Below, piece after piece: positions 8,359 through 61,176 of a stretch of DNA of 64,000 nucleotides (positions are counted from its first letter, which is position 1; each line of letters starts with the position of its first letter). The stretch lies in the IMG/VR virus record IMGVR_UViG_3300045988_156843. One strand, 5' to 3'. The notes beneath the pieces were generated by a model that was not told the DNA's origin, made no database searches, and saw only the letters and a program-made list of their open reading frames with translations. A program made the translations under genes and the position numbers. Origin of the DNA: a virus.

Positions 8359-9744
8359 ATGACAACAGAAAATATTAAATCATTAATAGATAAATATGAA
8401 GATAGAAAATTTTTCGAGAAAGACCCTGTTTCTTTCCTTTGGAAGTATAAAGACAAGCGAGATATTGAAGTCGCAGCGGTCATTTGTTCTACTCTAGCTT
8501 TCGGCAACCGTCAACAAATCTATAAGGCTTGCGAGAAAACGTTGGCTATCATGGGAGAATCACCGTATGAATGGGTCATGTCTCAAAAATATCCGTTATC
8601 ATTTGGTGAAGATAAATGTTGGTATAGAATGCTTACTAATTTTGATTTAGCAAATATCTGCTATTTCTTAAAGCAGATATATACGAATTTCGATTCACTC
8701 GAAGAATGTATTACTCATGCTATGAAAAGTGTAGGGATATTTGGCACATACAACGAAGCGTTAACCAACATATTTTATGGATGTAAAGGAATACCCAAAG
8801 ACAACAAATCCTGCTGTAAACGCCTGTGTTTAATGCTTAGATGGCTTGTTCGCCAAAACAGTCCTGTTGATGTAGGGATATGGAAATCGTTAGATCAGTC
8901 TAAATTATTGATTCCATGTGACGTTCATGTGCTTAATAAAGCTAGAGAGTTAGGCTATATTAAACGTAAGAGTAACGACATGAAAACTTGTATAGAGTTG
9001 ACAAATAAATGTCGAAAAATTGTGCCTAGTGATCCTGCATCTGTAGATTTTGCTTTATTTGGAATGGGATATGAAGAAGCTCATCCAAAAGAATTTGAAG
9101 AGTCAGATCCAAAAATTCCATTGACTCCTCAACAAATTATATTAATAAGCACATATGCAGTATTGTATGTCAATGAATTATGTAATGTTTGCGTTCTCGA
9201 CTTAAATACAATGATGCCTAATCGTGACTCAGAAACAAAGAAGATATATAAGGCAGCATTTAAAAGAGTCCGGGAATATCAGAAAATAGTAAATAAGATA
9301 TCCTCAACATCGGGTAACATATACTCTAATTTTTGTGATCTTTTTGATGTATATGTAATGCCTGTATTAAAAGAATATCAAGAATCAATTGAAGAATATC
9401 TTGATACTCTTCCGGGAGAATTCGGAAATACTTATTTTTTATCTCACGTAGAGGTAGCAAGAAGTATGACGCATTATTCTATATGGGAAACTGCATATAG
9501 AGTCGCAGATTCTTTCAAATATACAAATAATGCTATATCTTTGTCGAAGTATAAGCAGAAAGAGCTTTTCAGCATACTAACTAATTTAACAAAATGGTGT
9601 TTTAGAAAAGCACCGGACATTGATTATAATTATCAACCCAAAATAGTAGCAGCATATGAAAAGCTAGACTCTATACTAACCAACCCTGAGATTATTTCAA
9701 AATGTATAATTAAAGCTCAAGAATTAGAAGATGGAATTGAATGA
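8359..9744 (+). CDS. TIGR02757/DUF2400-family (HhH-GPD glycosylase superfamily) protein with ~215-aa C-terminal extension
   Basis: The N-terminal ~245 aa resemble TIGR02757 proteins as I recall them (DPVSFLWKY...DIEVAAVICSTLAFGNRQQI...PYEWVM...CKRLCLMLRWLVR...IPCDVHV). The rest has no recognisable motif. Confidence 0.65.
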   Translation: MTTENIKSLIDKYEDRKFFEKDPVSFLWKYKDKRDIEVAAVICSTLAFGNRQQIYKACEKTLAIMGESPYEWVMSQKYPLSFGEDKCWYRMLTNFDLANICYFLKQIYTNFDSLEECITHAMKSVGIFGTYNEALTNIFYGCKGIPKDNKSCCKRLCLMLRWLVRQNSPVDVGIWKSLDQSKLLIPCDVHVLNKARELGYIKRKSNDMKTCIELTNKCRKIVPSDPASVDFALFGMGYEEAHPKEFEESDPKIPLTPQQIILISTYAVLYVNELCNVCVLDLNTMMPNRDSETKKIYKAAFKRVREYQKIVNKISSTSGNIYSNFCDLFDVYVMPVLKEYQESIEEYLDTLPGEFGNTYFLSHVEVARSMTHYSIWETAYRVADSFKYTNNAISLSKYKQKELFSILTNLTKWCFRKAPDIDYNYQPKIVAAYEKLDSILTNPEIISKCIIKAQELEDGIE

Positions 9745-10057
9745 ATATCAATTAAAAGCATTAGAAACAGCGAATTATCCACAAGAGTATAAGATTGTTT
9801 ATCCCACTTTAGGATTAACTGGAGAAGCAGGAGAAGTTTCGGATAAAGTAAAAAAAGTTATTCGTGACAACAATCATGAATTCTCAGATGACAGAAAAAG
9901 AGAAATCGCAAAAGAAATTGGAGATGTACTTTGGTATTGCGCTACCTTATCACATGATTTAGGTTACACTTTAGATGAGATAGCTGAAATGAATTATAGC
10001 AAACTCAAATCTCGTAAGGAAAGGAATATGATAAATGGCAATGGTGACAATAGATAA
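9731..10057 (+). CDS. mazG: MazG-like nucleoside triphosphate pyrophosphohydrolase
   Basis: 108 aa with the LTGEAGEVSDKVKK...EIGDVLWY pattern (EExxE/D metal site plus a helical pair) typical of the small MazG/YpjD family. Confidence 0.8.
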   Translation: MELNEYQLKALETANYPQEYKIVYPTLGLTGEAGEVSDKVKKVIRDNNHEFSDDRKREIAKEIGDVLWYCATLSHDLGYTLDEIAEMNYSKLKSRKERNMINGNGDNR

Positions 10058-10059
10058 TC

Positions 10060-10281
10060 ATGAGTAATACTGGACATAAATGGATATATCGTAAAACAAT
10101 GTCTCGTCTTAAAGAACCAATAAGATATAAAGTCCGTGTATACCATAAAGGTAAAAGTATTGATGTCGGCATGTTTAGAACATTAGAAGATGCTCTGAAA
10201 AGACGTAATCAATATATCAAAGATAATAATATAAGCGAACTTGCATTGAAGAAATATAATAGGCACTTAGATACAACTTAA
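10060..10281 (+). CDS. AP2-like DNA-binding protein
   Basis: 73 aa. YKVRVYHKGKSIDVGMFRTLEDALKRRNQY fits the AP2 beta-sheet plus helix pattern. Confidence 0.45.
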   Translation: MSNTGHKWIYRKTMSRLKEPIRYKVRVYHKGKSIDVGMFRTLEDALKRRNQYIKDNNISELALKKYNRHLDTT

Positions 10282-10304
10282 CACATAATTGACTATCTTT
10301 GCGT

Positions 10305-11483
10305 ATGCAGCGAGTAGAACGATATATTATCATTGGAGACAGTCGTTTGGATAATCTTTGCTTCTTATCCAAGAACTTGTATAACTACGTGAATTATCTG
10401 ATACGTCAGGAGTTTACGCAGAATGGGAAGATGTTGTCTGAATATGAAGTTACTACAAGGCTTGCTAAAGAAAAACAGGCTGACTATATCGTTCTACCGT
10501 CACAGACAAGTCAACAGATAGTTAAGTTGCTATTCAAGAACTGGAAGTCGTTCTTCAAGCTGTGCAAGTGCAAGGACAAGTTGAAAGGAAAACCGAAACT
10601 TCCAAAGTACAAGCATAAGACGAAAGGACGGAACATAGTCGTATTCACCTCGCAACAATGCAAGTTGAAGGACGGATACATCCACTTCCCGAAGAAAGCA
10701 AACATACAACCGTTAAGAACAAGGGTGACTAACTTGTGCCAAGTGAGGATTATACCTCAATGTAGTTGCCACATAATAGAAGTAGTATATGAAAAAGAAT
10801 GTATTAAAACCATCGGACTAGAGCCGGATTCTTATTTGAGTATTGATTTAGGATTGAATAATCTTGTAACTTCATGCGATTCACTCAATCACAAGAGTTT
10901 TATCGTAAATGGCAGACCGTTGAAATCCATTAACCAATACTTTAACAAGAAAAGAGCATTACTCATGAGCTATATAGGGAACAGAGGTACGAGTAATAGA
11001 ATAGGTAAGCTGACATTTAAGAGAAATTGTAAAGTAAATGACTATATGCATAAAGCATCACGTTTTATTGTAAACTATTGTATAGAACATCATATCGGTA
11101 CTATTGTAATAGGAAACAATAAAGACTGGAAGCAAAACTGCAATATGGGAAAGAGAAACAATCAGAACTTTGTAAGCATACCATTTGAAAAGCTTATATC
11201 CATGATACAGTATAAATCCGAAGAAGTGGGAATAAGAGTAGTCATAACAGAAGAGAGCTATACTTCTAAAGTTGACCACTATGCCGGAGAAGAGATGTGT
11301 CACCATGATAGTTACTTGGGTAAACGAATAAAAAGAGGTCTATACCGTAGCAGTACAGGGAAAATTCTGAATGCTGACCTTAACGGAGCGATAGGAATTT
11401 TAAGAAAAGTATCTCACGAAAGCTATATGCAAGTAGTGAGTAGAGGTGGAGTGGAGACACCATCGAGAATACACCTAGTGTAG
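10305..11483 (+). CDS. tnpB: TnpB RNA-guided endonuclease (IS200/IS605 OrfB family)
   Basis: RuvC triad in context: SIDLGLNN (D at 10845-10847), ITEESYTSK, NADLNGAIGILRK. The usual CxxC..CxxC zinc ribbon is replaced by ...HYAGEEMCHHDSYLGKRIKRGLYRSSTGKILNADLNGA, as in a known TnpB subgroup. The ORF-track start at 10299 is TTG; the first ATG is at 10305. Confidence 0.8.
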   Translation: MQRVERYIIIGDSRLDNLCFLSKNLYNYVNYLIRQEFTQNGKMLSEYEVTTRLAKEKQADYIVLPSQTSQQIVKLLFKNWKSFFKLCKCKDKLKGKPKLPKYKHKTKGRNIVVFTSQQCKLKDGYIHFPKKANIQPLRTRVTNLCQVRIIPQCSCHIIEVVYEKECIKTIGLEPDSYLSIDLGLNNLVTSCDSLNHKSFIVNGRPLKSINQYFNKKRALLMSYIGNRGTSNRIGKLTFKRNCKVNDYMHKASRFIVNYCIEHHIGTIVIGNNKDWKQNCNMGKRNNQNFVSIPFEKLISMIQYKSEEVGIRVVITEESYTSKVDHYAGEEMCHHDSYLGKRIKRGLYRSSTGKILNADLNGAIGILRKVSHESYMQVVSRGGVETPSRIHLV

Positions 11484-11531
11484 ACTCGTAAATAAATACC
11501 ATAATACACGTAACGAAAATAAAGATTTAAC
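11350..11531 (+). ncRNA. expected omega-RNA (reRNA) region of tnpB
   Basis: Placed by analogy only. TnpB guide RNAs derive from the 3' end of tnpB plus the right end of the element. I could not define the scaffold or the guide boundary. Confidence 0.3.
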
Positions 11532-11933
11532 ATGGGAAAGTATTTTACAATCGAAGAATTATGTCGGTCAAATACAGCCGATGCAAAAGGAATAGACAAT
11601 ACTCCTAATAACGCTCAAAAAGAGAGATTAAAAGATTTAATAGAAAATGTATTAGACCCTTTAAGAGAGGCATACGGAAAACCTATTTACGTCAATAGTG
11701 GATTCAGAAATGATAAGCTAAATAAAGAAGTTGGAGGTGTAGTAACAAGTCAACACAGAAGGGGGGAAGCTGCGGATATTAGTGCAGGATCAATTAAAGA
11801 AAATGAAAAATTATTTAATTTAATTCAGGAATTAAATCTCCCCTTCGACCAATTAATCAATGAATCAAATTTTAGTTGGGTACACGTTTCCTATTCACAG
11901 GAAAGACAAAGGAAACAGATATTAAAACTTTGA
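11532..11933 (+). CDS. peptidase M15 (VanY/D-Ala-D-Ala carboxypeptidase-like) endolysin
   Basis: SGFRNDKLNKEVGGVVTSQHRRGEAADI and a later WVHVS motif give the H/D/H zinc-site pattern of M15 phage lysins. Confidence 0.8.
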   Translation: MGKYFTIEELCRSNTADAKGIDNTPNNAQKERLKDLIENVLDPLREAYGKPIYVNSGFRNDKLNKEVGGVVTSQHRRGEAADISAGSIKENEKLFNLIQELNLPFDQLINESNFSWVHVSYSQERQRKQILKL

Positions 11934-11940
11934 TTATAGA

Positions 11941-11964
11941 TAGGCTACTACGGTAGCCTATTTT
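11941..11964. terminator. bidirectional terminator between convergent genes
   Basis: taggctac-tacg-gtagccta forms a perfect 8-bp stem (11941-11960), followed by tttt. It overlaps the 3' end of the minus-strand ORF. Confidence 0.55.
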
Positions 11965-12133
11965 CTTTTAGTCTTCTAAGATCAATAATTTCATCTAAAA
12001 GTTTAAATCTTAGATCTTCAAATTCGCAATGTGGCAAATCTTTTATCAGATTCTTGATCGCTTGATTAATCTCGTAGTCTTTTCTGATGATTGTTAACTT
12101 GATAGAATCATATTTCACCTTCTTGCATTTCAT
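11948..12133 (-). CDS. hypothetical protein
   Basis: Last ORF of the minus-strand cluster; ATG overlaps the upstream stop. Confidence 0.45.
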   Translation of the reverse strand: MKCKKVKYDSIKLTIIRKDYEINQAIKNLIKDLPHCEFEDLRFKLLDEIIDLRRLKENRLP

Positions 12134-12300
12134 AATTTCTGTTTTTCGTTAGTAAGAATAGCATTTATTTTTTCTTCTGTAAAGCCAAACTGCTTTGCAA
12201 ATTTCATAAAAGACTTCTTTTGCTTTTCGGGAATAAGTGCAAACATAGAGTTGATAGGTTTATCACTCTGTAATGCTTTCTTGAAATCTTTGTTTTTCAT
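12130..12300 (-). CDS. small hypothetical protein (56 aa, below ORF-track cutoff)
   Basis: Hand translation gives MKNKDFKKALQSDKPINSMFALIPEKQKKSFMKFAKQFGFTEEKINAILTNEKQKL*. The TGA overlaps the ATG of the next gene, and the ORF fills a gap. Confidence 0.4.
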   Translation of the reverse strand: MKNKDFKKALQSDKPINSMFALIPEKQKKSFMKFAKQFGFTEEKINAILTNEKQKL

Positions 12301-12304
12301 ATTA

Positions 12305-12718
12305 TCATTTCTTTATTCTACAACAATCACATAAATATTTCTTTGCCGAATTCCAGGTCTTATCTATGATGTAATCACCTAAATATTGTATTTCCTCACC
12401 ATGAGGGCTTATATCATAAGTAAGGCATATATGGTCTGCTAAGTGTCCTGATTCATGAGACCAAGTTTTTTCAAACTCTTTTGCACTGCTCGTTCTACCT
12501 ATAACAATTACACTTTTATGCGCTAAGTGATTAGAAAATGTAAGTCCATTATTATATCCACATGTAGTTAGATTTTTATAAGCTCTTTTGAGTGATTCTT
12601 CCCCACATTCTATATATTCTAATTCTTCCATTACATCTTCAAAATATTTACAAATATAATCGTAAAAGATAGTAACAGTCCAATCGTATTTAGATAAGTA
12701 TATTGTTTTTATTTCCAT
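12305..12718 (-). CDS. minimal HExxH zincin-like protein
   Basis: WSHESGHLADHI is an HExxH motif. Similar in layout to 55545..55937. An alternative ATG at 12736 lies inside the intergenic hairpin, so 12718 is preferred. Confidence 0.45.
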   Translation of the reverse strand: MEIKTIYLSKYDWTVTIFYDYICKYFEDVMEELEYIECGEESLKRAYKNLTTCGYNNGLTFSNHLAHKSVIVIGRTSSAKEFEKTWSHESGHLADHICLTYDISPHGEEIQYLGDYIIDKTWNSAKKYLCDCCRIKK

Positions 12719-12728
12719 AATATTAAAA

Positions 12729-12747
12729 AGGCACATTTTAAGTGCCT
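12729..12747 (-). terminator. intergenic stem-loop
   Basis: aggcac / gtgcct form a 6-bp stem with a 7-nt loop between two minus-strand genes. Confidence 0.3.
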
Positions 12748-12751
12748 AAAC

Positions 12752-13162
12752 TTAAAGCATATCTTCCCAATTAATAGCTACACCCATACCCATCATATCA
12801 GCGAAGAAATGACGAAACGCTTTTTCGGTAGATGGATAGTCTGGATCATCGATATAGTCTTTTACGAATAGTGCTAACATTTGCTCGTTTTGTATAGACG
12901 ATCCCATATAATCTGCCCTAGCCATGTTTACTGCATATACTGCATTATAACCATTGTCTTTTTCCAATGTCACATTATATCTTTTCAACAGTTCGTCTAA
13001 CTTTTCTTTTGTAATAGGTGTGATTTTGCCTTCTTTTGTTTTCATCATAGAGACTGCCCAATCACACATTTTTTTAGAAAAATTAAATCCATAATTTTGT
13101 AGATAAATCCGCATATCTTCTGGGATATTATCATACAAATCAAAACTTGCTCCTTTATACAT
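12752..13162 (-). CDS. hypothetical protein
   Basis: 136-aa ORF in the minus-strand cluster; no motif recognised. Confidence 0.5.
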   Translation of the reverse strand: MYKGASFDLYDNIPEDMRIYLQNYGFNFSKKMCDWAVSMMKTKEGKITPITKEKLDELLKRYNVTLEKDNGYNAVYAVNMARADYMGSSIQNEQMLALFVKDYIDDPDYPSTEKAFRHFFADMMGMGVAINWEDML

Positions 13163-27523: not shown

Positions 27524-27542
27524 CATGTAAATATTGCACCTC

Positions 27543-29159
27543 ATGTCAGAAAACAGCGAAAATAAACTCAAAATAATACGTCCGCAAAAAGGCTTCCAAG
27601 AAAAATTCGTTCGAAGTAACGTAGATTTTGTTGTAGGTGGAGCCGCTATGGGGGTTGGCAAATCTTTCGCTGCATTACTGATGGCGGCAGAACCTTCTCT
27701 TGACCCTAATTTTCGTATGGTTTTTATTCGTAAGAATATACAAGATACAAAAGTAGGTGGTGGTGGTGTTGATGAGATTGAAAAGATTTATGGAGATGCT
27801 GTAAAGGTCAAACGGTCGGAAAATCCTCGTGCTACATTTAAGAATGGAGCTTTTGTCGATTTTACTCACATGGATAATGAAAATCCCGAAGACGTTCTAG
27901 AACGTGTAAAAGGATGGCAATATGGGGTTATTTATTTTGATGAAGGAACAGGATTTGAATGGAGTACAATTCGATTGGCTTTTTCTCGTAATCGTAGTTC
28001 CGGGAAATGGAATGGCAAGATCAGAATTACCTGTAATCCTAAAAAGAATCATTGGCTTAGAATTTGGCTTGATTGGTATATTGATCCTATAACTGGTTAT
28101 CCAATTCCGGAAAGAGATGGAGTTGTTAGATACTTTTATATTAAAGGAGACAATATAAAAGATGTAGCATTTGGAGATACTCCGGAAGAAGTTTACGAAC
28201 AATGTAAACATCAAATTGATGGGCATCTTAAAAAATTGAATGCTAGAGGAGGAAAGTTTACTTATAAGGATTTCATTAAGACTACTACTTTCTATGGCGG
28301 TTCACTGGATATGAACGAGGAACTGCTTAAGACTAATCCGGGATATGTGGCAAGCGTTGCTGCAATGGGCGAAAAACAAGCATTAGCCAATCTTGCAGGA
28401 AACTGGAATGTAGATATTTTAGATGAATCTGAATCACCTATTCCAAGTTGGGCTGCACGTGAATGCTTAATGGCTGATCCACAAGTGAACGGAAATAAAT
28501 GGATTACGGCAGACTTAGCTGATTATGGAACTGATAATTTTATTGCGTTAGTATGGGATGGATTACACATATATGATATGCTAGTATTAGGAAAGACTAC
28601 TCCTGCCCAAAATGCTAATCAATTGAAATTACTCGCAGCTAAACATGACATACCGGATTCTCATATTGTATTTGACGGTACAAACGGAAGATACATATTA
28701 GATTATATACCCGATGCAATTCCTTTCATCTCATCTTATCCTCCTGTTGGATTATATGCGAGAGCAGCAGCTAATAGAAAGGATGAAGCATATCTCAGAT
28801 TAAAATTTCTTATCACTGAACGAAAAATATCATTTTCTAATGATGTAGCCAATCGTAAATATTATCACGCAAAATTGAAAACGGAAGTCTTAATAGAGAC
28901 TGAATTTATTGAAGAATGTTCCGTTGTTCGTTTTCAAGAACAGCCGGGCGGCAAAAAAAGATTGGCGACTAAAAAAGAAATGAATCAGATGCTTGGTAAA
29001 GGAAGATCAATGGATTTACTTGATGCTATAGCAATGAGAATGTTCCCGTTAGCTGAATATCAATATGGGACAGAACTTGAAAAAACGGCAATAGATCAGC
29101 GAGATGAAATTGAATGTGATTCAAATGAGAGTGTTTATGAAGATTCTTTTTGGGCTTAA
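27543..29159 (+). CDS. terL: terminase large subunit
   Basis: Walker A-like GGAAMGVGKSFAALL, Walker B-like VIYFDEGT, and a C-terminal nuclease-sized domain. The ORF-track start at 27534 is TTG; ATG is at 27543. Confidence 0.8.
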   Translation: MSENSENKLKIIRPQKGFQEKFVRSNVDFVVGGAAMGVGKSFAALLMAAEPSLDPNFRMVFIRKNIQDTKVGGGGVDEIEKIYGDAVKVKRSENPRATFKNGAFVDFTHMDNENPEDVLERVKGWQYGVIYFDEGTGFEWSTIRLAFSRNRSSGKWNGKIRITCNPKKNHWLRIWLDWYIDPITGYPIPERDGVVRYFYIKGDNIKDVAFGDTPEEVYEQCKHQIDGHLKKLNARGGKFTYKDFIKTTTFYGGSLDMNEELLKTNPGYVASVAAMGEKQALANLAGNWNVDILDESESPIPSWAARECLMADPQVNGNKWITADLADYGTDNFIALVWDGLHIYDMLVLGKTTPAQNANQLKLLAAKHDIPDSHIVFDGTNGRYILDYIPDAIPFISSYPPVGLYARAAANRKDEAYLRLKFLITERKISFSNDVANRKYYHAKLKTEVLIETEFIEECSVVRFQEQPGGKKRLATKKEMNQMLGKGRSMDLLDAIAMRMFPLAEYQYGTELEKTAIDQRDEIECDSNESVYEDSFWA

Positions 29160-29169
29160 AATATAAATC

Positions 29170-29736
29170 ATGGAAGCAAAGGATTTAAAAAAAATAATAG
29201 AGGATTGCGCTAAGATGAAGTACGAAATAACTGTTAGAGATATTTCGTATATCGTTTTATTTAATGAATATAACAGTTCTACAATTGCCTATAAATCCAT
29301 TTTTGGGGACGGAGAAGAAGATGTGATTTCAAAATATCATAAGTCAAAAACAATAAAGTTTCTCAAAACATATATTGATGCTAATTTTAAAAATAAGAAG
29401 CAAACCAAAAATGTAGATGAAGAAGACATTCAGGCTGAATATGAAGATATCACATTTGAAGAAAACAAAGAAGCTATGGTACGTCTATTGGCAAAAATAC
29501 CGGAAGCTATCAAAAATGGAATGTCTATAAAAGATGCATTAAAATTAGAAGCGGATGTTCGTACTAGACTTAACGACAAATTCTCTGTTGCTGAAAAAGT
29601 AGAACAGCAATATATAATTGTAGAACAAAAATATAATGATATTTGCCCATATTGTCGGCATGAAATTGCCGTCCCAACTAAAGAGGTTTTAATGCAGAAG
29701 TATAATTTAATTGAAAATCCAAACAAGAATGCCTGA
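29170..29736 (+). CDS. hypothetical protein with C-terminal CxxC
   Basis: 188-aa ORF between terminase and portal, containing CPYCRHE. Function not called. Confidence 0.5.
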   Translation: MEAKDLKKIIEDCAKMKYEITVRDISYIVLFNEYNSSTIAYKSIFGDGEEDVISKYHKSKTIKFLKTYIDANFKNKKQTKNVDEEDIQAEYEDITFEENKEAMVRLLAKIPEAIKNGMSIKDALKLEADVRTRLNDKFSVAEKVEQQYIIVEQKYNDICPYCRHEIAVPTKEVLMQKYNLIENPNKNA

Positions 29737-31252
29737 TTATAAAGAACAAATAAAGCAACTTCTTTCAGAACCGGAAAGATTATTAAGAAAGAAGCCTTTT
29801 TTTAGAGGATATGACATGAATTCATGTGCTCGTTTATATCCAACTAAAGTTGATATAAATGAGACCGTTAAAGTTGAACTTCCGGCTATAAAGAAAAGAG
29901 TGATTCATCAAAGCGAGTTTCTAAAAGAACTAGAGCCACTAAATCACCGTGTTCTATACGATCAAAATGTGCCTTCTATTACTATGAAGCTAGACAAAGA
30001 ACAAGGTGGAGGATTTGTCGAGATCAAATATCAGAAGATGGCTGTCCCATTCCAAAAAAATATAAAAGACAAACAGGTACAGCATCTGTGTGGAAATAAA
30101 ATGGAATTTACAATAGTTGACGAAAACCCGACAGATCAACAACAACAGGATTTTATTACATTTAAACAATATTGGGATCTGAGGAACCAAGATGGAATGA
30201 AAAGAAAGTTAGCAGATGCACAATTATCTGTTGGAGATGCCGGATTGTTATACTACTTTGACCAAGACAAACAAATCAAATCTAGGCTTATATCTTACAT
30301 GGATGGTTTTGTTTTGATTCCACATAATGATGAAAATGGGGATCGCATCATGGAGGCTGTTTATTATCCCAAAGATGATGTTGAGTATATTGATTGTTAT
30401 GATAAAGAAAACTTATATCGTTTTATCCGTGATGATTATGCTGTAGATACTAATAAATATGGATGGAGATTAGTCGAGACTAAATCTCATGGATTCTCTG
30501 AAATTCCTCTTGTAACAAAAAGAGGCGATGTCGCATGGAATGACGGACAAAGCGTTATTGAATCTTACGAAATTTTATATAATATTTTTAATGTTATTCA
30601 AAAAAGACATGGATGGGGGATTCTGTATATTAAAGGTCGCTTTGATGAAACAGGGAAGAAAATTGCCGGATCTGTTATTCTTAATGACAAAACGGCAGGA
30701 ACTGATGCTTCAGGTAATGATGCCAAGTTCTTGACACCTCCTTCTCCGCAGGGAACGATTGACACATTACAGTTAATGGAAGAAACAATACAGAAAGCTA
30801 CAAGTACAACTTTCTTGCTTCCTAAAGATGTTAAAATGACTGGAGATATTTCCGGCATTGCTATTATGCTTACTCAATCAATGGACATTGAAAAGGGGTT
30901 GGAACATGCTGCTGAATATCAGAATGTTGCAGATAAAATGTGCCGTTTGTTTAAAGAGGGATTGGCTAAAGAACTTGTGTATAAAAAGATTCAGCCCACT
31001 GCAATTACTGATTTTGAAAATCTAAAAATTAATGCTAAATTTGTGGTTTGGAGACCTCAGTCTGAAACTGATTTAGTACAGAGATTGGCTACTGGAATTA
31101 GTAATGGTATGATATCTAAGGACACAGCTATAGAAAAGAATCCTGATTCTAAACCGGATGAAAAAGCAAGATTGGAAAAGCAAAAAGAAAAAGAGATTGC
31201 AGATCAAGAACGGCAATTAGAAATAACATCAAAATATAGTAACAAAAAATAA
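29729..31252 (+). CDS. portal protein
   Basis: ~507 aa, adjacent to the terminase, with an acidic/helical C-terminus typical of SPP1-type portals. The ORF-track start at 29711 is TTG; ATG 29729 overlaps the previous stop. Confidence 0.65.
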   Translation: MPDYKEQIKQLLSEPERLLRKKPFFRGYDMNSCARLYPTKVDINETVKVELPAIKKRVIHQSEFLKELEPLNHRVLYDQNVPSITMKLDKEQGGGFVEIKYQKMAVPFQKNIKDKQVQHLCGNKMEFTIVDENPTDQQQQDFITFKQYWDLRNQDGMKRKLADAQLSVGDAGLLYYFDQDKQIKSRLISYMDGFVLIPHNDENGDRIMEAVYYPKDDVEYIDCYDKENLYRFIRDDYAVDTNKYGWRLVETKSHGFSEIPLVTKRGDVAWNDGQSVIESYEILYNIFNVIQKRHGWGILYIKGRFDETGKKIAGSVILNDKTAGTDASGNDAKFLTPPSPQGTIDTLQLMEETIQKATSTTFLLPKDVKMTGDISGIAIMLTQSMDIEKGLEHAAEYQNVADKMCRLFKEGLAKELVYKKIQPTAITDFENLKINAKFVVWRPQSETDLVQRLATGISNGMISKDTAIEKNPDSKPDEKARLEKQKEKEIADQERQLEITSKYSNKK

Positions 31253-33588: not shown

Positions 33589-35535
33589 ATGGAAATAATC
33601 AAAGACATAGCAGCTACGCAAGAAGTTGAATGGGGCACTCTAGCAGATGCAATTGATAGGAATTTCAATGAAGCATCTACAGGAATTCAAACAGTTGCTC
33701 AGAAGGTGGATCTTCTTGACATGGCTTCTCCAAACTATTGTGTGGGAGAATGGCAAAATGGAGAATTAAGTCCTACATCAGTTAATACGATTGGTGATAC
33801 AAGTATACTTGACAAATGGGATTTCTATCTAATAGATACTACAGACAATACAGGTGAGACTAATCATCCTGTAGGAAAATTGAAAAGAAACAATCTTCTT
33901 CGATTTGTAGACGGTAGTTTTGCTCCTGTTATTGGAATCACAGAAGCTATGAGAGCCGAATGTGATGTTGAACTGTATTTAGATAATACCCAAACAAATA
34001 AATACTGTGATGCAGGGGCATTTGATGCAGAAGCATTCTATAATCAATATGGGATGACGCAGAAACTCTACAATGCGACAGGTGAAGAAGTTCGTATTTT
34101 ACGACCTTATGAGACCACTGAAACTAAATATACAATAGGTTTAGGAAGAGCAGATAAGATTTATCTATTAGATAACGTTGTCGGAAAAAGTGGGAAAAGA
34201 TGGAAAGGGATATTTGCAAGTCCGACAACATGGGATGGAATAGATACAACTCTTTGGGGGCTTGATCCGACTGCCATATCTCCTTGTCCTGTATGCACTA
34301 TTGGCAATAAGACACGTTCTTTCTTTTATGTATATGAAGGTGAATCTAATTGTAAATCTTCAAATGGTATAAATAATCGTTGTACGATGTTTAGTAACGG
34401 AAGAACATATCCAAGAGTTAATGATATGAATCAAGTCAACGACATGACGTGGAGTCGTGCAAATAATGCAGATCCCGATGCACCTTATCCTTTTGCAGAA
34501 GGAGGATATCATGCGTTGAATACTTTCATCAATTGTTTGGAAATTCGTTATGGAACTAAATATCTACACAAGGAATCATTATTTTCCGGTGGTATTTGTT
34601 CTAATGATTCTGTAAGCGAAGCAGGATGGACAAAGACGGGAGGCATTCGTTACAAAAAGACGGCAGATAGCACATGGAAATACGCTAATTGGAATACGAC
34701 TCCATCGGATATGTTCTATAATGCTAGTGGGGGTAAGACTAATATGAATGAATTCCTAAGTAATTATTGTCCTAAAGAACAATGTATGGAGAGTCAAATG
34801 GCAGCATCGTTTGCCGTTGAGACTGGAGTGCAGGAAGGTGAAGAATTTGAATTCTATGGAGCTACCTATTATTACCGCAATATAGTGGATACAAAAGGAT
34901 TAGCTGATGGAGAAATGAATGTAAAGGTATATAAGAAGATGTCTCAAACATTTAATGCATATGACGAGTTGGGTGCAGAAACATCTTTTGATGTAGAAGT
35001 AATCTTGCGTATGGCTTTATATGCAGGTGCTAATTTATCCGGTGATGTATTTGCTTACTGCGGAGGAGGATATGAACAGGTTGGAACATGTGTGAATGCT
35101 GCTTCAGCATCTGTTAACAATCCAGTTGATATTTATTTGGAACCGGATCAAAAAAAATGGTTGAAAGAAACAAGTGTAACTAAAACCAATCTTGGTACTT
35201 TTGATTTTGAAAAATCCTATATGAAATTAGGCAGTAGTACAAACTTGGGAGATAGTTACGCAAAAGAGCGAGAAAATTATGCTGCATGGAAGACTGCAAA
35301 AGGCGGTAGTCTGTCAACTGGAGAATGTTATTATGCTTGGGATAACAATTATTGGAGTAGTACAGCTATGCAGCGTGTTAGAATTGCGGCTCGGTTTCGT
35401 GGTCATGCTTATTCTGCTGTTTGCTCGCCTCGTAATTTGTATGCGCATTACGCTGCTTCTAATGCGACTCGTAACATTGCCGGGTTTGCCCAAGTTAGGA
35501 TATCAGTAAACGCAGTTCCGATGCAATCGGAATAA
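33589..35535 (+). CDS. DGR target protein (variable C-terminal C-type-lectin-like domain; probable receptor-binding protein)
   Basis: The last ~50 codons contain the VR, which matches the downstream TR except at TR adenines. The C-terminal placement of VR is typical of Mtd-like targets. Confidence 0.85.
   Translation: MEIIKDIAATQEVEWGTLADAIDRNFNEASTGIQTVAQKVDLLDMASPNYCVGEWQNGELSPTSVNTIGDTSILDKWDFYLIDTTDNTGETNHPVGKLKRNNLLRFVDGSFAPVIGITEAMRAECDVELYLDNTQTNKYCDAGAFDAEAFYNQYGMTQKLYNATGEEVRILRPYETTETKYTIGLGRADKIYLLDNVVGKSGKRWKGIFASPTTWDGIDTTLWGLDPTAISPCPVCTIGNKTRSFFYVYEGESNCKSSNGINNRCTMFSNGRTYPRVNDMNQVNDMTWSRANNADPDAPYPFAEGGYHALNTFINCLEIRYGTKYLHKESLFSGGICSNDSVSEAGWTKTGGIRYKKTADSTWKYANWNTTPSDMFYNASGGKTNMNEFLSNYCPKEQCMESQMAASFAVETGVQEGEEFEFYGATYYYRNIVDTKGLADGEMNVKVYKKMSQTFNAYDELGAETSFDVEVILRMALYAGANLSGDVFAYCGGGYEQVGTCVNAASASVNNPVDIYLEPDQKKWLKETSVTKTNLGTFDFEKSYMKLGSSTNLGDSYAKERENYAAWKTAKGGSLSTGECYYAWDNNYWSSTAMQRVRIAARFRGHAYSAVCSPRNLYAHYAASNATRNIAGFAQVRISVNAVPMQSE
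35386..35494 (+). repeat. DGR variable repeat (VR)
   Basis: Hand alignment to 35641-35749 gives 97/109 identical. All 12 mismatches lie opposite TR adenines. Confidence 0.9.
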
Positions 35536-35550
35536 AGGGGATGCAATCCC
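35516..35550 (+). promoter_or_regulatory. twin GCA-loop hairpins downstream of VR (candidate DGR target-recognition element)
   Basis: ttccgat-GCA-atcggaa (35516-35532, spanning the stop codon) and gggat-GCA-atccc (35538-35550). They start 22 nt after the VR end. Confidence 0.4.
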
Positions 35551-35640
35551 TGCAAATCCTATAGACATCTGATAAGTTATGCAATGGGACATAACCTCTA
35601 AAACAGATTGGATAGGTTGAAATAATGGATAAAGAGTTTT

Positions 35641-35749
35641 GCGGCTCGGTTTCGTGGTAATGCTAATAATGCTAATTGCTCGCCTCGTAATTTGAATGCG
35701 AATAACGCTGCTTCTAATACGAATCGTAACAATGCCGGGTTTGCCCAAG
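35641..35749 (+). repeat. DGR template repeat (TR)
   Basis: Non-coding copy of VR with 27 adenines. In the VR frame it reads as 12 AAY codons plus one ACG. Confidence 0.9.
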
Positions 35750-35895
35750 AAGGTTCTTTTATTATCGTCAAACTCTTTATTCGTGTCTTGGAACGACAAA
35801 TTATTATAAGACAATGTACTTGTGGATACATTTTGTATTTGAGAAGTACGGTAGTGGAAATAAACATTACCTTTTATGCCCAACTTGCTATAAAA

Positions 35896-37269
35896 ATGAA
35901 AAATAGAATAGTTGACATATTTGATAATATTACAGAAAAGGATGTAAATCTTGCGATTGATCGTGCTATTCATAAACATATGAATAAAAGAGAAGTCATA
36001 TCCTTTTTAGACAACAGACCGTCTAATTGCAAACAATTATATTCCGCATTAAAAGATGGATCATACATTAATATATTATCATATAAATATTTAGAAAAGA
36101 CAAATAAAAATGGTAAAGACAGGGACATCAGTAGTCCAACATTAGAAACTAGGATATACCAACATTTACTATTAAATTTGTTAGAACCTACATATTATCA
36201 GAAAGACAATAATTATGGTTTAAATTGCAAAAAGAAATCCGGTATAACTGCAACTGATAAAAAAAGATCTGTTGTACATAAGATGAAAAATATCTTTTAT
36301 GATCGATTGGATTTAAGTTATTGTTTAGTGATAGATCAAAGGAAGTGCTACGAACATATTAAGGAGAAATATTTCAGGAAAGCTATAAAGAAAATAGTTG
36401 CTGATAAAAAACTGATAGATTTTGCCGTAAATATATGTTTTGTAAATAATAAACTTCCGATTGGAACGCCAACTTCACCATTTGCTCATCATATCTTGAT
36501 GTTATCTTTTGATTATTTTGCAAAGAGTTTAACAAAAGAATGTGTAAGATACGCTGATGATAACTTTTTAGCTTTTCATACTAAAGAGGAAGCTCAACAG
36601 GCTAAATGGAGAATCAAGAACTTTTGGTGGTATGAATTAGGGATGCGTGCTAAAAGACATACAGTTAAAATACAGCCATTATCTATTCCTTTAGATTTTT
36701 GTGGCTATAAGTATTATAGAAATAACAATTCAAAAACTTCTCATAATAAAGGATATACAAAAATTAGAAAAAGAGTAGCTGACGATGCCAAACGCTGCAA
36801 TAATGATAGAAGTTGGGGATCTTACTTCGGATTATTAAAACATGCAGACACATGGTCATTAATGCGCAAAATAGAAAATAAAATGAGACTTACGGAACTT
36901 ACTAACAAGATCAAGATTGATCGCAAAATGGATGCTAAGAATATCCTTCCTAAAGAATTACTAGGCGAGGTTATATCCATTTATGAATATGAGATTAGAT
37001 ATGATTCTAAAGGCAATGCCAATTGGATTAAATGTTTAATTGGTATGGATGAAAAGGATGAAGATGGAGAATCTACTGGGAGAACAATCGCAAGAGAATT
37101 TCATGGAAACTTTCAAGGGATCATACAATATATTATCTTGTGCGAAAAGGCTTTTGGAAAGAAACAATTATTACCTTTGGAAGATGTTGAGATTGAGAAT
37201 CAATGTGGATACATATTCAAAGGAAGTACTAATCAATTAGAATATATAAGTAAAGATGAGAACAATTAA
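35896..37269 (+). CDS. DGR reverse transcriptase
   Basis: RT motifs VIDQRKCYEHI, LPIGTPTSPFAHHIL, VRYADDNFLAF (YxDD) and FCGYKY. The first ATG after the TR is at 35896; the longer track ORF from 35692 is just the TR read in frame. Confidence 0.85.
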   Translation: MKNRIVDIFDNITEKDVNLAIDRAIHKHMNKREVISFLDNRPSNCKQLYSALKDGSYINILSYKYLEKTNKNGKDRDISSPTLETRIYQHLLLNLLEPTYYQKDNNYGLNCKKKSGITATDKKRSVVHKMKNIFYDRLDLSYCLVIDQRKCYEHIKEKYFRKAIKKIVADKKLIDFAVNICFVNNKLPIGTPTSPFAHHILMLSFDYFAKSLTKECVRYADDNFLAFHTKEEAQQAKWRIKNFWWYELGMRAKRHTVKIQPLSIPLDFCGYKYYRNNNSKTSHNKGYTKIRKRVADDAKRCNNDRSWGSYFGLLKHADTWSLMRKIENKMRLTELTNKIKIDRKMDAKNILPKELLGEVISIYEYEIRYDSKGNANWIKCLIGMDEKDEDGESTGRTIAREFHGNFQGIIQYIILCEKAFGKKQLLPLEDVEIENQCGYIFKGSTNQLEYISKDENN

Positions 37270-56205: not shown

Positions 56206-58317
56206 TTAAAATGGTAATTCATCCGTTGGTTCCGAGAATGGTAAATTATCGCTTGAATATTCTCGTTGATAGCCATTATATATATGATCATTATTTTCTT
56301 TGAAAATAGGAATAGCCGGAGAAGGATTTTCCCAACCATAATGGATATTCTCATTTTCTTCATTCATAAAACGTCTGCTAGGAATATCATAATACATTCC
56401 ACACATATAATCGACAATGCCATACATTCTGTTTTTAGCTACTTCTAATACATTGCCATAGTCCATCATTGCTGTTATCGCTTCTTTTCCAAAAAACTCT
56501 CCCCCTCTTTTTTCAAAATCCTTGTTAACACGATGAATGATAAATACATTAGATGCAGCATTAGTTAAATCAGCCGTACCGCTAATAGAATCCTTTCTTA
56601 AGAAGTCTACCTGTTTTCGTGGATGACATACTAATATCAGATGTATATTGTTCTTCTTAGAAAATTCGCATATCTGCAAAATAAGCTCTTTCTGTTTGTT
56701 ATTCTTATCTCCTTCAAACAGATCAATATCTAGAGTAAAAAGATTATCCAAAATAAGCAACTCTACACCATTGTCAACCATTTCCTTCATATCATTAAAT
56801 AGTTGCGCCCATTTGCTTCCATATTCATTGTTATAAAGGAAAAACTTATCATCAAGCCAATTATCTATCTTATCTATGACAGATGGATTTATATAAAATT
56901 TCCCAATATTCTTTCTTGATTCTAATAAATTCTCCCTTCCGGCTGCAACCATTTCAAGCCATGTTTTTAATACTCCCGGTACAAGTTCTCCACTCCATAA
57001 TGCTGCTTTATGACCATTGTTCACAACATTCAATATCAATGTATTCAACCATGATGATTTACCACTTGAATTAGTACCTGAAAGCAGGGAAACCTCACCT
57101 AAATTTAGTCCTACAATAGCCCTATCTAAAGAGTGAAACCCTGTTTTTAGACTGATGATATTATTCAAATCTATTTTAGGTATATCCTTCATTCTAAACC
57201 ATTTTTTACCTAATTCAGGAGTCTCTTCTTTTACCTTCTGTTCCTTTTTAGACGTATATTGATTTCTTTGATATGGGATAGCAGTATTATGTGCTTGCGA
57301 TTTAATGTCGTAAGCATTAGGTTCAAATTTCAATCTTAAATCTCGCCATGTGTACTGACTACATGAATTATGAAAACATGTAAATCCTATACCATCTTTA
57401 GATACAAAAATAGCTGAATCAGGAGCTTTGTGAGATGGATCAAATGGACATTCAGAAAGGACTATTTTTCTTGTTCCATCGCCCATTGTTATATCCTTAT
57501 GAACTTTTATACCATAATTGGATATAAAATTATCTATATCAAATTGCTCCCTATTCCCTAAATTATACCTATTTATAGGTTCAGTCTTAGGTAACATATC
57601 TGCCAAATTCTTAAATAATGATATATCATTAGACTGTATACATTCAGGTACAACAAGTATTTTGCTTAACCTATGCGGTCTTTTGGGTGTATTTCCTCCT
57701 TTTCTTGAATATGTACCATACAATTTTGTAACTCTTGCTGGATTAAAGACTTTCAAGTCTACATCTACATATTCATCAGTGAATTTACTTCCCAAATATT
57801 TAAGGAAATTAGATAATATCAATGTGTTTTCAGGAGTATTTTCTAATTTATCAACTTTAAACATTAGATGATAACCATTTCCTGACATAGACACTATAGG
57901 AGAAAAGAATCCTCTTTCTCTCAAAAATCTCCTAACAGACAAAGCCATCTGCCTTGCTCTTTCTAATTCTTCATCAGTCGTAGCTATTTCCTTTACACCT
58001 CCTTCTCGTACTGGATCTAAGTCTACTAATACCCAATTCCTATATTTGATATCATTATCTTTTATAGCTTCACAACCCTTAATCATTTTGTTATATTGAG
58101 GGTAGCCATCCATAGCATCTTTTAGTTGATTAAAGATAAAGTAAATATTGTATTTATCATCAAAACGCAATATATTTTCTATTGCCTTATCTGCATCTCT
58201 AAATATGCCGGAATAAATATCATATTTGTTGAGAGGATTGAATAATCTAATCTCAAATAAATCTGTATCAGAATCCCTAAATACAGAAAGAGTCCTTTTT
58301 ATCTCATTAACGTCCAT
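56206..58317 (-). CDS. bifunctional primase-polymerase (AEP) / SF4-like helicase
   Basis: AEP motifs VLVDLDPV (DxD), SGNGYHLMF and NPARVTKLYGT, plus Cys/His cluster CPFDPSHK...CFHNSC. Walker A is SGTNSSGKSS and Walker B is LLILDNL. Ends ...SEPTDELPF. Confidence 0.8.
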   Translation of the reverse strand: MDVNEIKRTLSVFRDSDTDLFEIRLFNPLNKYDIYSGIFRDADKAIENILRFDDKYNIYFIFNQLKDAMDGYPQYNKMIKGCEAIKDNDIKYRNWVLVDLDPVREGGVKEIATTDEELERARQMALSVRRFLRERGFFSPIVSMSGNGYHLMFKVDKLENTPENTLILSNFLKYLGSKFTDEYVDVDLKVFNPARVTKLYGTYSRKGGNTPKRPHRLSKILVVPECIQSNDISLFKNLADMLPKTEPINRYNLGNREQFDIDNFISNYGIKVHKDITMGDGTRKIVLSECPFDPSHKAPDSAIFVSKDGIGFTCFHNSCSQYTWRDLRLKFEPNAYDIKSQAHNTAIPYQRNQYTSKKEQKVKEETPELGKKWFRMKDIPKIDLNNIISLKTGFHSLDRAIVGLNLGEVSLLSGTNSSGKSSWLNTLILNVVNNGHKAALWSGELVPGVLKTWLEMVAAGRENLLESRKNIGKFYINPSVIDKIDNWLDDKFFLYNNEYGSKWAQLFNDMKEMVDNGVELLILDNLFTLDIDLFEGDKNNKQKELILQICEFSKKNNIHLILVCHPRKQVDFLRKDSISGTADLTNAASNVFIIHRVNKDFEKRGGEFFGKEAITAMMDYGNVLEVAKNRMYGIVDYMCGMYYDIPSRRFMNEENENIHYGWENPSPAIPIFKENNDHIYNGYQREYSSDNLPFSEPTDELPF

Positions 58318-59237
58318 TAATCATGATCCCATTTTTGTTGTTCCTTATTCCATACATATTTCCGTCCCTGACAAAATACTGTTGCATTATCCGGTCGAGT
58401 ATCTTTTGTATATCCATCACAAAGATTATCAAAAGCCCACGGATAAAAGCATATATATCTTTGTGATGGCTCATTCCATCGAACATCTGAGCCATTGGTG
58501 TTAGGATGATATTCATTTTCATCATAGTCAGGTTCATCAGTAAATAATTCCCATGAGCGATTATTTATATATGTTTGAAGATTCTTAGGATTAGGATAAA
58601 AAGAATCAGCATCCTTTGCTTCTTTCCTTTTTCTATTTTCAGCATCTATTGCTTTGTTTAGTATTGGAATAACATCATGCCAATCCTTATGCTTCTTTAC
58701 TAATAAATCCAATTCTGTTTTCAGACCTCTTTTAGCACCGGGATATTTTTTTCGAAATTCTTCAAATACTGATTTCTCTTCTTCTGTCGGATAAAAAAGC
58801 ACTTTCTTAGATACGTTAGTATCTTCTTTTATTCCTTCTTTATTTAATTCATGTAAGTTATTAATTATATCTTTATTTAATTGTGGTTGATTTTCCGTAT
58901 GCGGATTTTCCGTATGCGGATTTTCCGTATGCGGATTTTCCGTATGCGGCTCCTCATAAAACATATAATCATTACCCATAAATTTCCCCTTTTCAGTACG
59001 ACATGCTTTTATTGAACAATATCCATTTTCCTTTAATTCAGAAATAATACTATAAATTGAACTTTTCCCTTCCTTCAATATAGCGCATATACCATTAATA
59101 GAGAAATCCCATTCTTCAGGCAATCCCATAACAACTGCTAAAAAACCTTTAGATTTTAGAGATAGTTTTTTATCTCTAAGAAAAACATTGGAGATAGTTG
59201 TATAATTACTATCTTTTTTTCTAAAAATAATATTCAT
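58317..59237 (-). CDS. replication initiator / replisome organiser-like protein
   Basis: N-terminal winged-helix-like domain (YTTISNVFLRDKKLSLKSKGFLAVVMGLPEEWDFSINGI...SSIYSIISELKENGY). A PHTEN x4 linker follows, then a C-terminal domain (FEEFRKKYPGAKRG...) like DnaD/phage conserved C-terminal domains. Confidence 0.55.
   Translation of the reverse strand: MNIIFRKKDSNYTTISNVFLRDKKLSLKSKGFLAVVMGLPEEWDFSINGICAILKEGKSSIYSIISELKENGYCSIKACRTEKGKFMGNDYMFYEEPHTENPHTENPHTENPHTENQPQLNKDIINNLHELNKEGIKEDTNVSKKVLFYPTEEEKSVFEEFRKKYPGAKRGLKTELDLLVKKHKDWHDVIPILNKAIDAENRKRKEAKDADSFYPNPKNLQTYINNRSWELFTDEPDYDENEYHPNTNGSDVRWNEPSQRYICFYPWAFDNLCDGYTKDTRPDNATVFCQGRKYVWNKEQQKWDHD
58891..58950. repeat. four tandem 15-bp repeats (candidate origin iterons) inside the initiator gene
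   Basis: ttttccgtatgcgga x3 plus ttttccgtatgcggc, head to tail. A very A+T-rich stretch lies at 58841-58890 next to them. Confidence 0.85.
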
Positions 59238-59335
59238 AATCCTTAAATTAGATGACCTTAATCTAGTAGAAGTGGGGAAGAGGGATTAAGGAAACCTCTT
59301 TCAAGTGCTAGCTACTTCACTCTATCCCCACTTTG

Positions 59336-59343
59336 CAAATATA
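59336..59343 (-). promoter_or_regulatory. candidate -7 box (TATATTTG on minus strand)
   Basis: Perfect TAnnTTTG about 100 nt upstream of the initiator ATG (59237). Confidence 0.25.
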
Positions 59344-59380
59344 GATATTATTTTGGATAAACCCTTATAGATAACATAAT

Positions 59381-60511: not shown

Positions 60512-60740
60512 TTTCTTTTGCCTCTTTTTTTTCAGCCAGTTTATATATAACAATCGCAGATAATGCCACTTTTAATTCCATTATACCTTTAATCTTATTA
60601 CCCAATTCATCTATGTCTATTTCCATTTCGCCATTAAATGAATCGATAATATTTACCATTTCTTTATCACCTCCTGATAAAAGAATAAAGCTTTTTATAA
60701 AATCACTATCAATACGAGTTTTTATTACAATTTCATTCAT
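60495..60740 (-). CDS. hypothetical protein
   Basis: The track start at 60776 is TTG; ATG is at 60740 (MNEIVIK...). Confidence 0.4.
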   Translation of the reverse strand: MNEIVIKTRIDSDFIKSFILLSGGDKEMVNIIDSFNGEMEIDIDELGNKIKGIMELKVALSAIVIYKLAEKKEAKENETKI

Positions 60741-60918: not shown

Positions 60919-60999
60919 TTAATACTTTAACATTGATTAATTTGTCTATGGTATCAATTTTTTTATCAAGATCGCATGCTTTCCTTAAGTTTTCTCTTT

Positions 61000-61164: not shown

Positions 61165-61176
61165 TTTTATTCTCAA

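Follow-up and report, generated by a model that had tools for sequence, protein, structure and literature searches.

A probable non-autonomous IS1595-type element with tnpB as its only gene in an uncultured Bacteroidales phage

The virus record IMGVR_UViG_3300045988_156843 of IMG/VR, a stretch of 64,000 nt that was analysed as a whole and is referred to here as the window, carries a tnpB gene immediately upstream of the phage endolysin gene. A preliminary description had assigned this open reading frame (ORF) to a solo TnpB, an RNA-guided nuclease of IS200/IS605 type. Comparison with 57 loci from IMG/VR and 66 from metagenomes placed the gene on a discrete insertion with terminal inverted repeats (TIRs) and a target-site duplication, and the ends of this insertion match those of IS1595-family DDE transposons, so that the IS200/IS605 label could not be kept. 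Judged by its ends, the tnpB unit is a non-autonomous IS1595-type element. The genes next to tnpB are a MazG-like gene and a gene for 73 amino acids on the left and an M15 peptidase endolysin on the right, and the locus comprises the following features:

10060..10281, plus strand: upstream gene for 73 amino acids, without Pfam match; its native C-terminus ...KKYNTRNENKD* is replaced by ...KKYNRHLDTT*
10255..10257, plus strand: candidate transposon-adjacent motif (TAM) T|AT, deduced from the last left-flank base and the first two duplicated bases
10256..10261, no strand: left copy of the target-site duplication, ATAATA, present as a single copy at empty sites
10262..11500, plus strand: whole tnpB element, 1,239 bp, delimited by the limits of homology between copies and by TIR matches at both ends
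10262..10285, plus strand: left TIR GGCACTTAGATACAACTTAACACA, 20/24 identical to the TIR of the transposase-bearing element of locus L056
10305..11483, plus strand: tnpB, with RuvC residues D181, E316/E317 (alternative position) and D358 and without zinc finger
11413..11488, plus strand: conserved RNA helices 11413-17/11436-40, 11422-23/11429-30, 11445-48/11458-61 and 11464-74/11478-88
11477..11500, minus strand: right TIR, reverse complement GGTATTTATTTACGAGTCTACACT, 18/24 identical to the TIR of the insertion sequence (IS) and overlapping the last RNA hairpin
11501..11506, no strand: right copy of the target-site duplication, ATAATA, defined by comparison with empty sites
11503..11522, plus strand: predicted guide AATACACGTAACGAAAATAA, preceded by TAT in empty-site alleles
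11532..11933, plus strand: endolysin (Peptidase_M15_3, from Pfam)

The conserved start of tnpB is the ATG at 10305, although the ORF listing gives 10299..11483, and with a stop codon at 11481-11483 the gene encodes 392 amino acids. The tight spacing noted earlier was confirmed, as the stop codon of the upstream gene (10279-10281) lies 23 nt before this ATG and the tnpB stop lies 48 nt before the endolysin ATG at 11532. That the ORF encodes a TnpB was borne out by a score of 182.5 bits against the NCBIfam model guided_TnpB (NF040570, cut-off 100), by matches to the Pfam families OrfB_IS605 (PF01385, 67.5 bits) and Cas12f1-like_TNB (PF07282, 44.2 bits), and by an AlphaFold2 model made with 15 relatives (mean predicted local distance difference test, pLDDT, 75), which showed the WED/REC/RuvC fold of TnpB and Cas12f and had AsCas12f, ISFba1 TnpB, ISDra2 TnpB and Fanzor2 as its best structural matches (E 1e-10 to 1e-17 over all four, 1e-12 to 1e-17 for Cas12f and the two TnpBs; template modelling score ~0.5).

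In an alignment of the 15 relatives, with identities down to 58%, D181 (SIDLG), E316/E317 (EESYTSK) and D358 (NADLN) were invariant in all 15. The RuvC triad given in the preliminary description is therefore present in these motifs, but its glutamate does not occupy the canonical RuvC-II position: the segment 'tiqmEDL' of AsCas12f aligns with 'ivignnKDW', the canonical slot is filled by K273, and the invariant glutamates stand 6-7 residues before the expected start of the first CxxC. An alternative glutamate position ('Ealt') has been defined for the IS607/Fanzor-related lineage (PMC10711439), and the active site of the window TnpB appears to be this Ealt arrangement, combined with a D-hydrophobic-G RuvC-I motif. 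Because searches of PDB sequences, by single sequence and then by profile, reached Cas12f only and neither ISDra2 TnpB nor Fanzor, the Ealt assignment is based on the alignment with Cas12f, on the definition in the literature and on the strand order of the AlphaFold2 model. The NADxN RuvC-III motif would place the protein in the 'derived TnpB' clade (PMC10691335). As noticed earlier, the zinc ribbon is missing, since a C4 zinc finger (CxxC...CxxC) between RuvC-II and RuvC-III (E317 to D358) was found in none of the 15 relatives; zinc-finger loss is documented in some large TnpB branches (PMC10691335), and its absence here thus does not exclude membership of the TnpB family.

Approximately 90% of the tnpB copies are full length, the three RuvC motifs are kept in 58-60 of 60 unique sequences, and the ratio of non-synonymous to synonymous substitution rates (dN/dS) is 0.05-0.08 against other subfamilies, all of which points to strong purifying selection and to a gene that is functional by evolutionary criteria. 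The earlier view of the gene as a solo TnpB, plausibly catalytic and borne by a discrete mobile insertion, is supported. The closest annotated or cellular relatives, at 44-52% identity, are Helicobacter and Campylobacter copies adjoining serine recombinase genes (IS607-type), and the best match among one genome each of 185,579 species reached 53%. Copies at 57-97% identity are abundant in gut viromes and metagenomes, all of them in phage-like contigs, and hence the tnpB lineage looks phage-restricted. A tnpA gene, likewise reported as missing, was not found in the window, and neither a Y1 transposase nor a serine recombinase was seen beside ~120 related copies. The higher G+C content to which attention had been drawn proved a weak sign: the element has 37.0% against 33.4% for the window (standard deviation 2.9, same-size windows), and as 9.7% of such windows are at least as high, the element is no outlier and G+C was dropped as an indication of foreign origin. 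We likewise dropped a perfect 13-nt inverted repeat inside tnpB (10314-26/10485-97), which is confined to the closest subgroup and not conserved. At the left end of the element, positions 10294-10301 (TATCTTTG) fit the pattern TAnnTTTG, the -7 promoter motif of Bacteroides; this octamer is retained in most subfamilies and stops 4 nt short of the tnpB ATG. It may serve as an internal promoter, from which the tnpB mRNA would be nearly leaderless.

As a megablast search of window positions 9000-13000 against GenBank phages gave no match, the context of the element was taken from IMG/VR and metagenomes. Homology between copies in unrelated flanks starts at 10262 (GGCAC...) and stops at 11500 (...TACC), and the ends delimited in this way are imperfect inverted repeats of ~24 nt. 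Nine independent tnpB insertions have matched duplications directly outside GG...CC, which measure 6 nt (ATAATA) in the window and a perfect 8 bp at the eight other sites (ATTTAATA, ATTTACTT, ATTAGGAT, ATGAGTAA, ATAAAATG, ATGAATAA, ATATTTGT and ATTTGTAT). The 8-bp rule is also obeyed by a subfamily of 84% identity (L014-L017, L052, L152-L158, L186-L187), in which the left end lies ~100 nt before the ATG and starts with GGTAGTTATATATC or GGCAATTATGTATC.

Empty-site alleles, which had been expected in close relatives, were found for the insertion in the window by aligning sister phages. Their sequence, GAAATATAATACACGTAACG... (GAAATATAATACACG in L063 and L068), has the duplicated bases once, and the upstream gene continues there to a stop codon just before the endolysin ATG. 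In the window, on the other hand, ORF 10060-10281 takes its last six codons and its stop from the element, whose left TIR encodes them, as foreseen in the proposal that the left end overlaps or has replaced the 3' end of the neighbouring gene. Empty sites matching the reconstructed single-copy sequence were found for four insertion sites, i.e., that of the window and three others. Some of the empty-site phages (contigs of L003 and L008) hold the element at another genome position, indicating that the element has moved within the phage lineage. Two tnpB copies each were present on the contigs _111782, _105130 and _093858.

Neither terminal inverted repeats nor a target-site duplication are found in IS200/IS605 and IS607 elements (PMC13565253; PMC6188088), and we therefore sought other elements with such ends. 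Away from tnpB, the 13-mer GGCACTTATATAC occurs ~16 times in the fetched phage loci, compared to 0.05 expected occurrences. The closest relative of the window, L056, which is 95% identical over the shared region, contains a 2,651-bp element (L056:1329-3979) with TIRs in inverted orientation (GGCACTTATATACGAC.C.ACAC) and a perfect duplication (TTATATTT), and this element encodes a 300-aa protein (L056:2096-2998) with a DDE_Tnp_IS1595 domain (145 bits) and the IS1595 zinc ribbon. The corresponding site in the window is an uninterrupted stretch between 7907 and 8374. Besides the transposase, the L056 element has passenger ORFs for 84 aa, a 77-aa zinc-ribbon protein, 60 aa and a 148-aa predicted membrane protein, and its insertion point is the 3' end of a gene for a DUF559/PvuRts1I-like endonuclease. 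When both strands of the window were compared with the 24-nt TIR of L056, the two best matches were those at 10262 on the plus strand (20/24) and 11500 on the minus strand (18/24), and no other position reached 17/24.

Further transposase-bearing elements (2.6-4.7 kb) and gene-less miniature inverted-repeat transposable elements (MITEs) of 212-220 bp share the TIR consensus GGCAnTTATnTACnAnnnnACAC, and all of them have perfect 8-bp duplications, as do 13/13 of the IS or MITE sites compared. The MITEs (L039:10144-10363, L046:3817-4036, L322, L384, L339 and others) occur in gut phage contigs at no fewer than five distinct sites (at least 5). Transposases with 74-81% identity are annotated in Bacteroides fragilis, B. 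oleiciplenus and B. finegoldii, and the chromosomal copies of B. fragilis, whose transposase is 81% identical, have TIRs of the same family (GGCAnTTATnTACnAnnnnACAC) and 8-bp duplications. Four contigs carry both a transposase and a tnpB element, while the two genes were never seen within one TIR pair. From the shared ends, the shared length of the duplication and the co-residence on four contigs, the tnpB unit is probably mobilised in trans by an IS1595-type transposase. The IS1595-type ends appear to be specific to the close phage family, as a scan for TIRs and target-site duplications in ~70 bacterial, archaeal and distant metagenomic relatives (42-63% identity) returned noise except for L053 and possibly L205. 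Two more distant phage TnpBs (57-63% identity) lie between inverted repeats whose sequences differ from the TIRs of the window, which suggests other transposase partners in the same TnpB clade: L143:4908-6210 has inverted repeats agreeing at 20/21 positions of ATTAGTCCCTTGAC(G/T)TACAAG with no obvious duplication, and L053:5976-7199 has AAAAATATTT ends and the duplication ATTAAATT with a T before it.

The ends also bear on two other origins of the insertion. It could be a classical solo TnpB of IS200/IS605 (IS1341-group) type, moved by a Y1 TnpA in trans and inserted 3' of a fixed tetra- or pentanucleotide that is at the same time the TAM, and the matches of the protein to OrfB_IS605 and guided_TnpB, the solo gene with a structured RNA at its 3' end and a short conserved motif, T|AT, at the left junction would all fit such an element. 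However, TIRs of ~24 nt and duplications of 6-8 bp at nine sites are foreign to IS200/IS605 elements, which have subterminal hairpins, the conserved motif does not abut the left end, from which 4-6 duplicated bases divide it, the ends are homologous to IS1595-type TIRs (20/24 and 18/24), and a Y1 HUH TnpA was not seen near the ~120 related copies; we consider this origin highly improbable. Still harder to credit is that TnpB is itself the transposase and that its RNase H-fold nuclease makes the staggered cuts behind the 8-bp duplication. The element encodes no other protein and TnpB has historically been annotated as a transposase, but gene-less MITEs and tnpB-free IS1595 elements share the TIRs and the 8-bp duplications, and TnpB is thus neither needed nor sufficient to explain the ends. 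Moreover, characterised TnpB (ISDra2) cuts 15-21 bp from the TAM and not beside it. On the same grounds we rejected an origin of the duplication from a TnpB cut followed by fill-in, since the duplication abuts the TAM-like motif and is shared by MITEs. An explanation of IS607 type, with crossover at GG, was also rejected because GG on the left and CC on the right are inverted, duplications are present and a recombinase is lacking.

While the ends of the tnpB element are those of its siblings, its insertion sites are not. A T at position -1 and AT at positions +1/+2 were present in 9/9 tnpB insertions with matched duplications, and four further left flanks with an exchanged right partner had the same T|AT pattern. 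The pattern was found in 0/13 sibling IS or MITE insertions, or in 1/20 if both orientations of ten of them are counted. The T at -1 is not among the duplicated bases and thus belongs to the chosen site, not to what the element carries. T|AT is, moreover, an asymmetric bias that is linked to the tnpB 3' end. These observations suggest that the TAM of the window TnpB is (n)TAT and that the guide starts at the third duplicated base; the TAM would then lie across the left edge of the duplication, as T|AT, and would not be a target motif of TnpA. The fixed right-flank base of IS607 has been described as assimilated into the scaffold of the right-end RNA (reRNA), and likewise target-site duplications (PMC10711439). 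By analogy, the simplest reading is that the first two bases after the right end act as part of the scaffold.

The structure may be of IS1595 type as proposed and T|AT may nevertheless reflect a preference of the transposase or an effect of sampling, in which case TnpB may use another TAM or guide register. All IS1595-type insertions studied here lie in A+T-rich octamers, the control set has 13 sites only, and four transposase-bearing copies start with TTA, a hint of a preference of their own. On the other hand, siblings of the same TIR family have T|AT at 0/13 sites as opposed to 9/9 for the tnpB copies, an asymmetric bias tied to the 3' end of tnpB is unexpected from a dimeric DDE transposase, and a T outside the duplication cannot travel with the element. 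We therefore regard this account as unlikely, albeit one to be taken seriously. A different use of the same motif, namely that recognition of the TAM by TnpB licenses or positions IS1595-type integration beside it, by physical coupling of nuclease and transposase, seems very unlikely to us; if true, it would be a primitive natural link between TnpB and a DDE transposase, and each new copy would be born with a usable guide.

The expected source of the guide RNA was the right end of the element together with the 3' end of tnpB, and a covarying structure was indeed found there. The last ~240 nt of 21 diverse copies share a conserved fold spanning the tnpB 3' end and the right end, in which 96% of cells are paired compared to 27-46% when the partners are slid, and eight pairs have compensatory changes, four of them in the first helix. 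This helix (11413-17/11436-40) lies inside the coding sequence, is the best supported and covaries at the cost of amino-acid changes; the last hairpin (11464-74/11478-88) overlaps the right inverted repeat. RNAalifold paired columns back to ~11264 as well, whereas no Rfam family matched over 10000-11800. The helices fit the 3' part of a putative omega/reRNA scaffold built over the transposon end. Thus empty sites, a structured 3' RNA and membership of the TnpB family were all found, the lack of which the preliminary description had named as speaking against its proposal.

The guide had been placed just past the element, but its first base is probably the third one of the right duplication copy. 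Its first 16 bases as predicted (AATACACGTAACG...) are unique in the window and match the empty sites of L061-L063, L065, L067 and L068 exactly, and those of L070-L074 with 2-3 mismatches. In these divergent alleles the equivalent of 11503-11522 reads AATAGACGTAATG... or AATACGCGCAACG..., and the mismatches could be escape from cleavage or ordinary divergence. The occupied locus would, on the simplest reading, be protected, given that the guide sequence follows CCAT there (TCAT in some copies) and the left junction matches over 4-6 nt only. Three copies at the site of the window (L013, L064 and L066) have lost ~30 nt of the stretch from the right end to the endolysin start, and the endolysin ATG takes its AT from the terminal ...CCAT of the element. 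For these copies the guide is predicted to be GGGTAAATATTTTAC..., and empty alleles with that type of endolysin read TAT|GGGTAAATATT, so that the loss would direct the nuclease to a second site flanked by TAT.

We propose that window positions 10262-11500 are a non-autonomous member of the IS1595 family with tnpB as its sole gene, from a lineage circulating between Bacteroides chromosomes and phages, and that the element spreads as follows. The element would be inserted, with an 8-bp duplication, by an IS1595-type DDE transposase that comes either from the infected Bacteroides cell or from a co-resident phage copy. Transcription past the right end would then give the omega/reRNA, with a scaffold ending in the inverted repeat and the AU of the duplicated target and with the next ~16-20 nt (AATACACGTAACG...) as the guide. 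During co-infection, TnpB and this RNA would cut the element-free alleles (TAT followed by the guide sequence) of related phages, and the break would be repaired from the element-bearing genome with the help of the RecT encoded by the phage, so that the element is copied in or the rival is simply disadvantaged. Only insertions beside T|AT would gain this drive, whereas others would gain none and would not be seen, which would explain T|AT at every tnpB copy and not at the siblings. Homing into the empty sites of co-infecting phages via RecT, as put forward in the preliminary description, would be plausible, and non-restorative homing between co-infecting phages has been discussed (PMC13565253, a 2026 review). 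Mobility mediated by reverse transcription was rejected, as the reverse transcriptase of the phage belongs to a diversity-generating retroelement.

Alternatively, TnpB may serve the phage, either as a weapon against co-infecting relatives without copying of the element or as a domesticated regulator, with the element being an immobile relic. This would agree with the lack of a transposase in the window and with strong purifying selection on tnpB, which fits any useful function; some empty-site alleles have 2-3 substitutions in the predicted target, and interference between co-infecting phages by an intron endonuclease is among the matters documented in PMC11620839. However, the element occupies many sites in one phage lineage with the alternative sites empty, thus its mobility is recent, and its catalytic residues are intact, unlike those of known domesticated TnpB regulators. 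Interference and homing are also not exclusive, as both follow from one cut. Service to the phage in place of mobility is, in our view, rather unlikely.

Several points weigh against the proposal of a transposase-dependent, T|AT-driven element. No IS1595 transposase is encoded in the 64-kb window, and a Pfam scan of 20 large ORFs of the window revealed no transposase and RecT as the sole recombinase; this copy is therefore non-autonomous and needs a helper. The duplication in the window is 6 nt and not 8, implying a loss of 2 nt or an atypical event. Around half of the distinct flank pairs lack matched duplications. We read these pairs as recombinants between copies, with decay as the alternative. 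In L039, for example, a left flank shared with L038 is joined to a right flank shared with L041, and several contigs have two copies. It seems that phage genomes recombine with one another at their tnpB copies (L038, L039, L041 and L044), which would explain the copies without matched duplications. The 13 non-tnpB sites are a small control set for T|AT, and many of the compared contigs come from one large dataset (3300045988). The 5' end of the RNA, the start of the guide, the TAM and cleavage are all inferred, the guide start and the TAM from natural variation. Finally, a nuclease would bring a less evident benefit if a break remained after IS1595 excision in any case, a point discussed in PMC13565253. 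Taking these points into account, we estimate the probability that the element and its mechanism are as proposed at roughly 0.7.

The phage itself belongs to an uncultured Bacteroidales lineage, as its portal protein is only 35% identical to that of Bacteroides phage C3_41T2LP and 28% identical to that of LoVEphage. Its phage genes, at 853-1713, 27534-31252 and 56206-63340, include those for RecT (853-1713), the large terminase, an SPP1-type portal, a DnaB-like helicase, a beta sliding clamp and a C5 cytosine methyltransferase. Elsewhere in the window, positions 33589-37269 form the diversity-generating retroelement mentioned above, with the reverse transcriptase RVT_1 at 35692-37269, a 111-nt variable repeat (35384-35494) at the 3' end of ORF 33589-35535 and a template repeat at 35639-35749; the mismatches between the two repeats all (12/12) fall on adenines of the template copy.

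The general ideas of DDE-associated TnpBs and of solo TnpBs mobilised in trans are already published. Six DDE-associated TnpB branches with inverted terminal repeats have been described, together with solo TnpBs that seem to be moved in trans (Altae-Tran et al., 2023; PMC10691335), and ISL2, IS630 and IS1031 are named as DDE partners (review PMC13565253). As in those branches, tnpB lies here between symmetrical inverted repeats with its 3' end within 250 bp of the transposon end, and as in the trans-mobilised solo TnpBs, the ends of the solo copies resemble those of transposase-bearing copies. In contrast to the named partners, the family concerned here is IS1595, with an 8-bp duplication, which is not among the families named in the main text of PMC10691335 or in PMC13565253, tnpB and transposase were never seen within one TIR pair, and the lineage looks restricted to phages. 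A literature search that did not cover the supplementary tables of PMC10691335 found no paper linking IS1595 with TnpB. Compared to the IS1595 IS and MITEs, the window element has the same kind of TIRs starting with GG, A+T-rich 8-bp duplications and transposase-bearing relatives with passenger ORFs, but it lacks a transposase and has an RNA-guided nuclease and a guide-RNA gene over its right TIR. The IS607-family TnpBs (H. pylori IS607 and ISXfa1) are the closest cellular and annotated relatives of the protein, and the concept of a fixed right-flank base in the reRNA applies to both; unlike IS607, which inserts at GG without duplication, the window element has TIRs and 8-bp duplications and no serine recombinase.

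The closest analogy would be the non-autonomous, Fanzor-only transposon with TIRs and target-site duplication of the Spodoptera frugiperda ascovirus (Yoon et al., 2023; PMC10711439), of which the window element may be seen as the bacterial-virus counterpart in the Ealt lineage. Like Fanzor2* and Fanzor1, it has an Ealt nuclease of the TnpB family captured by a cut-and-paste type of transposon with TIRs and target-site duplication; like the ascovirus element, it has the nuclease as its only gene and resides in a virus genome; and as in Fanzor elements, the TIR, and possibly the first bases of the duplication, would be part of the guide-RNA scaffold. It differs from the Fanzors in being prokaryotic (Bacteroides phage), in its RuvC-I motif (DLG as opposed to DPG) and in the loss of the zinc finger, and the duplicated bases seem for the most part to belong to the guide and not to the scaffold. 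Similarities also exist with the free-standing homing endonuclease genes of phages (T4 Seg/Mob type), which lie between conserved genes and for which, as predicted here, the gene-free allele is cut and the gene then copied in by recombination; unlike these, the window element has predicted RNA-guided recognition and discrete transposon ends and can also move to new sites.

In summary, the default labelling of solo phage TnpBs as IS200/IS605 is unwarranted. The transposase-bearing, gene-less and tnpB-bearing elements, which share their ends while only the tnpB-bearing ones are confined to T|AT, form a natural control, and the contrast between them would be population-level evidence that the TAM of the nuclease shapes which insertions persist. 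The proposal predicts nTAT as the TAM, a guide starting from the third base of the duplication and an IS1595 transposase of host or phage as the helper. It would also mean that an Ealt TnpB lineage, sister to the lineage of the Fanzor ancestor, left its IS607-type context in bacterial viruses and is now a passenger of a transposase-less IS1595-type element, the same evolutionary move as has been proposed for Fanzor2* and Fanzor1 in eukaryotes and their viruses.

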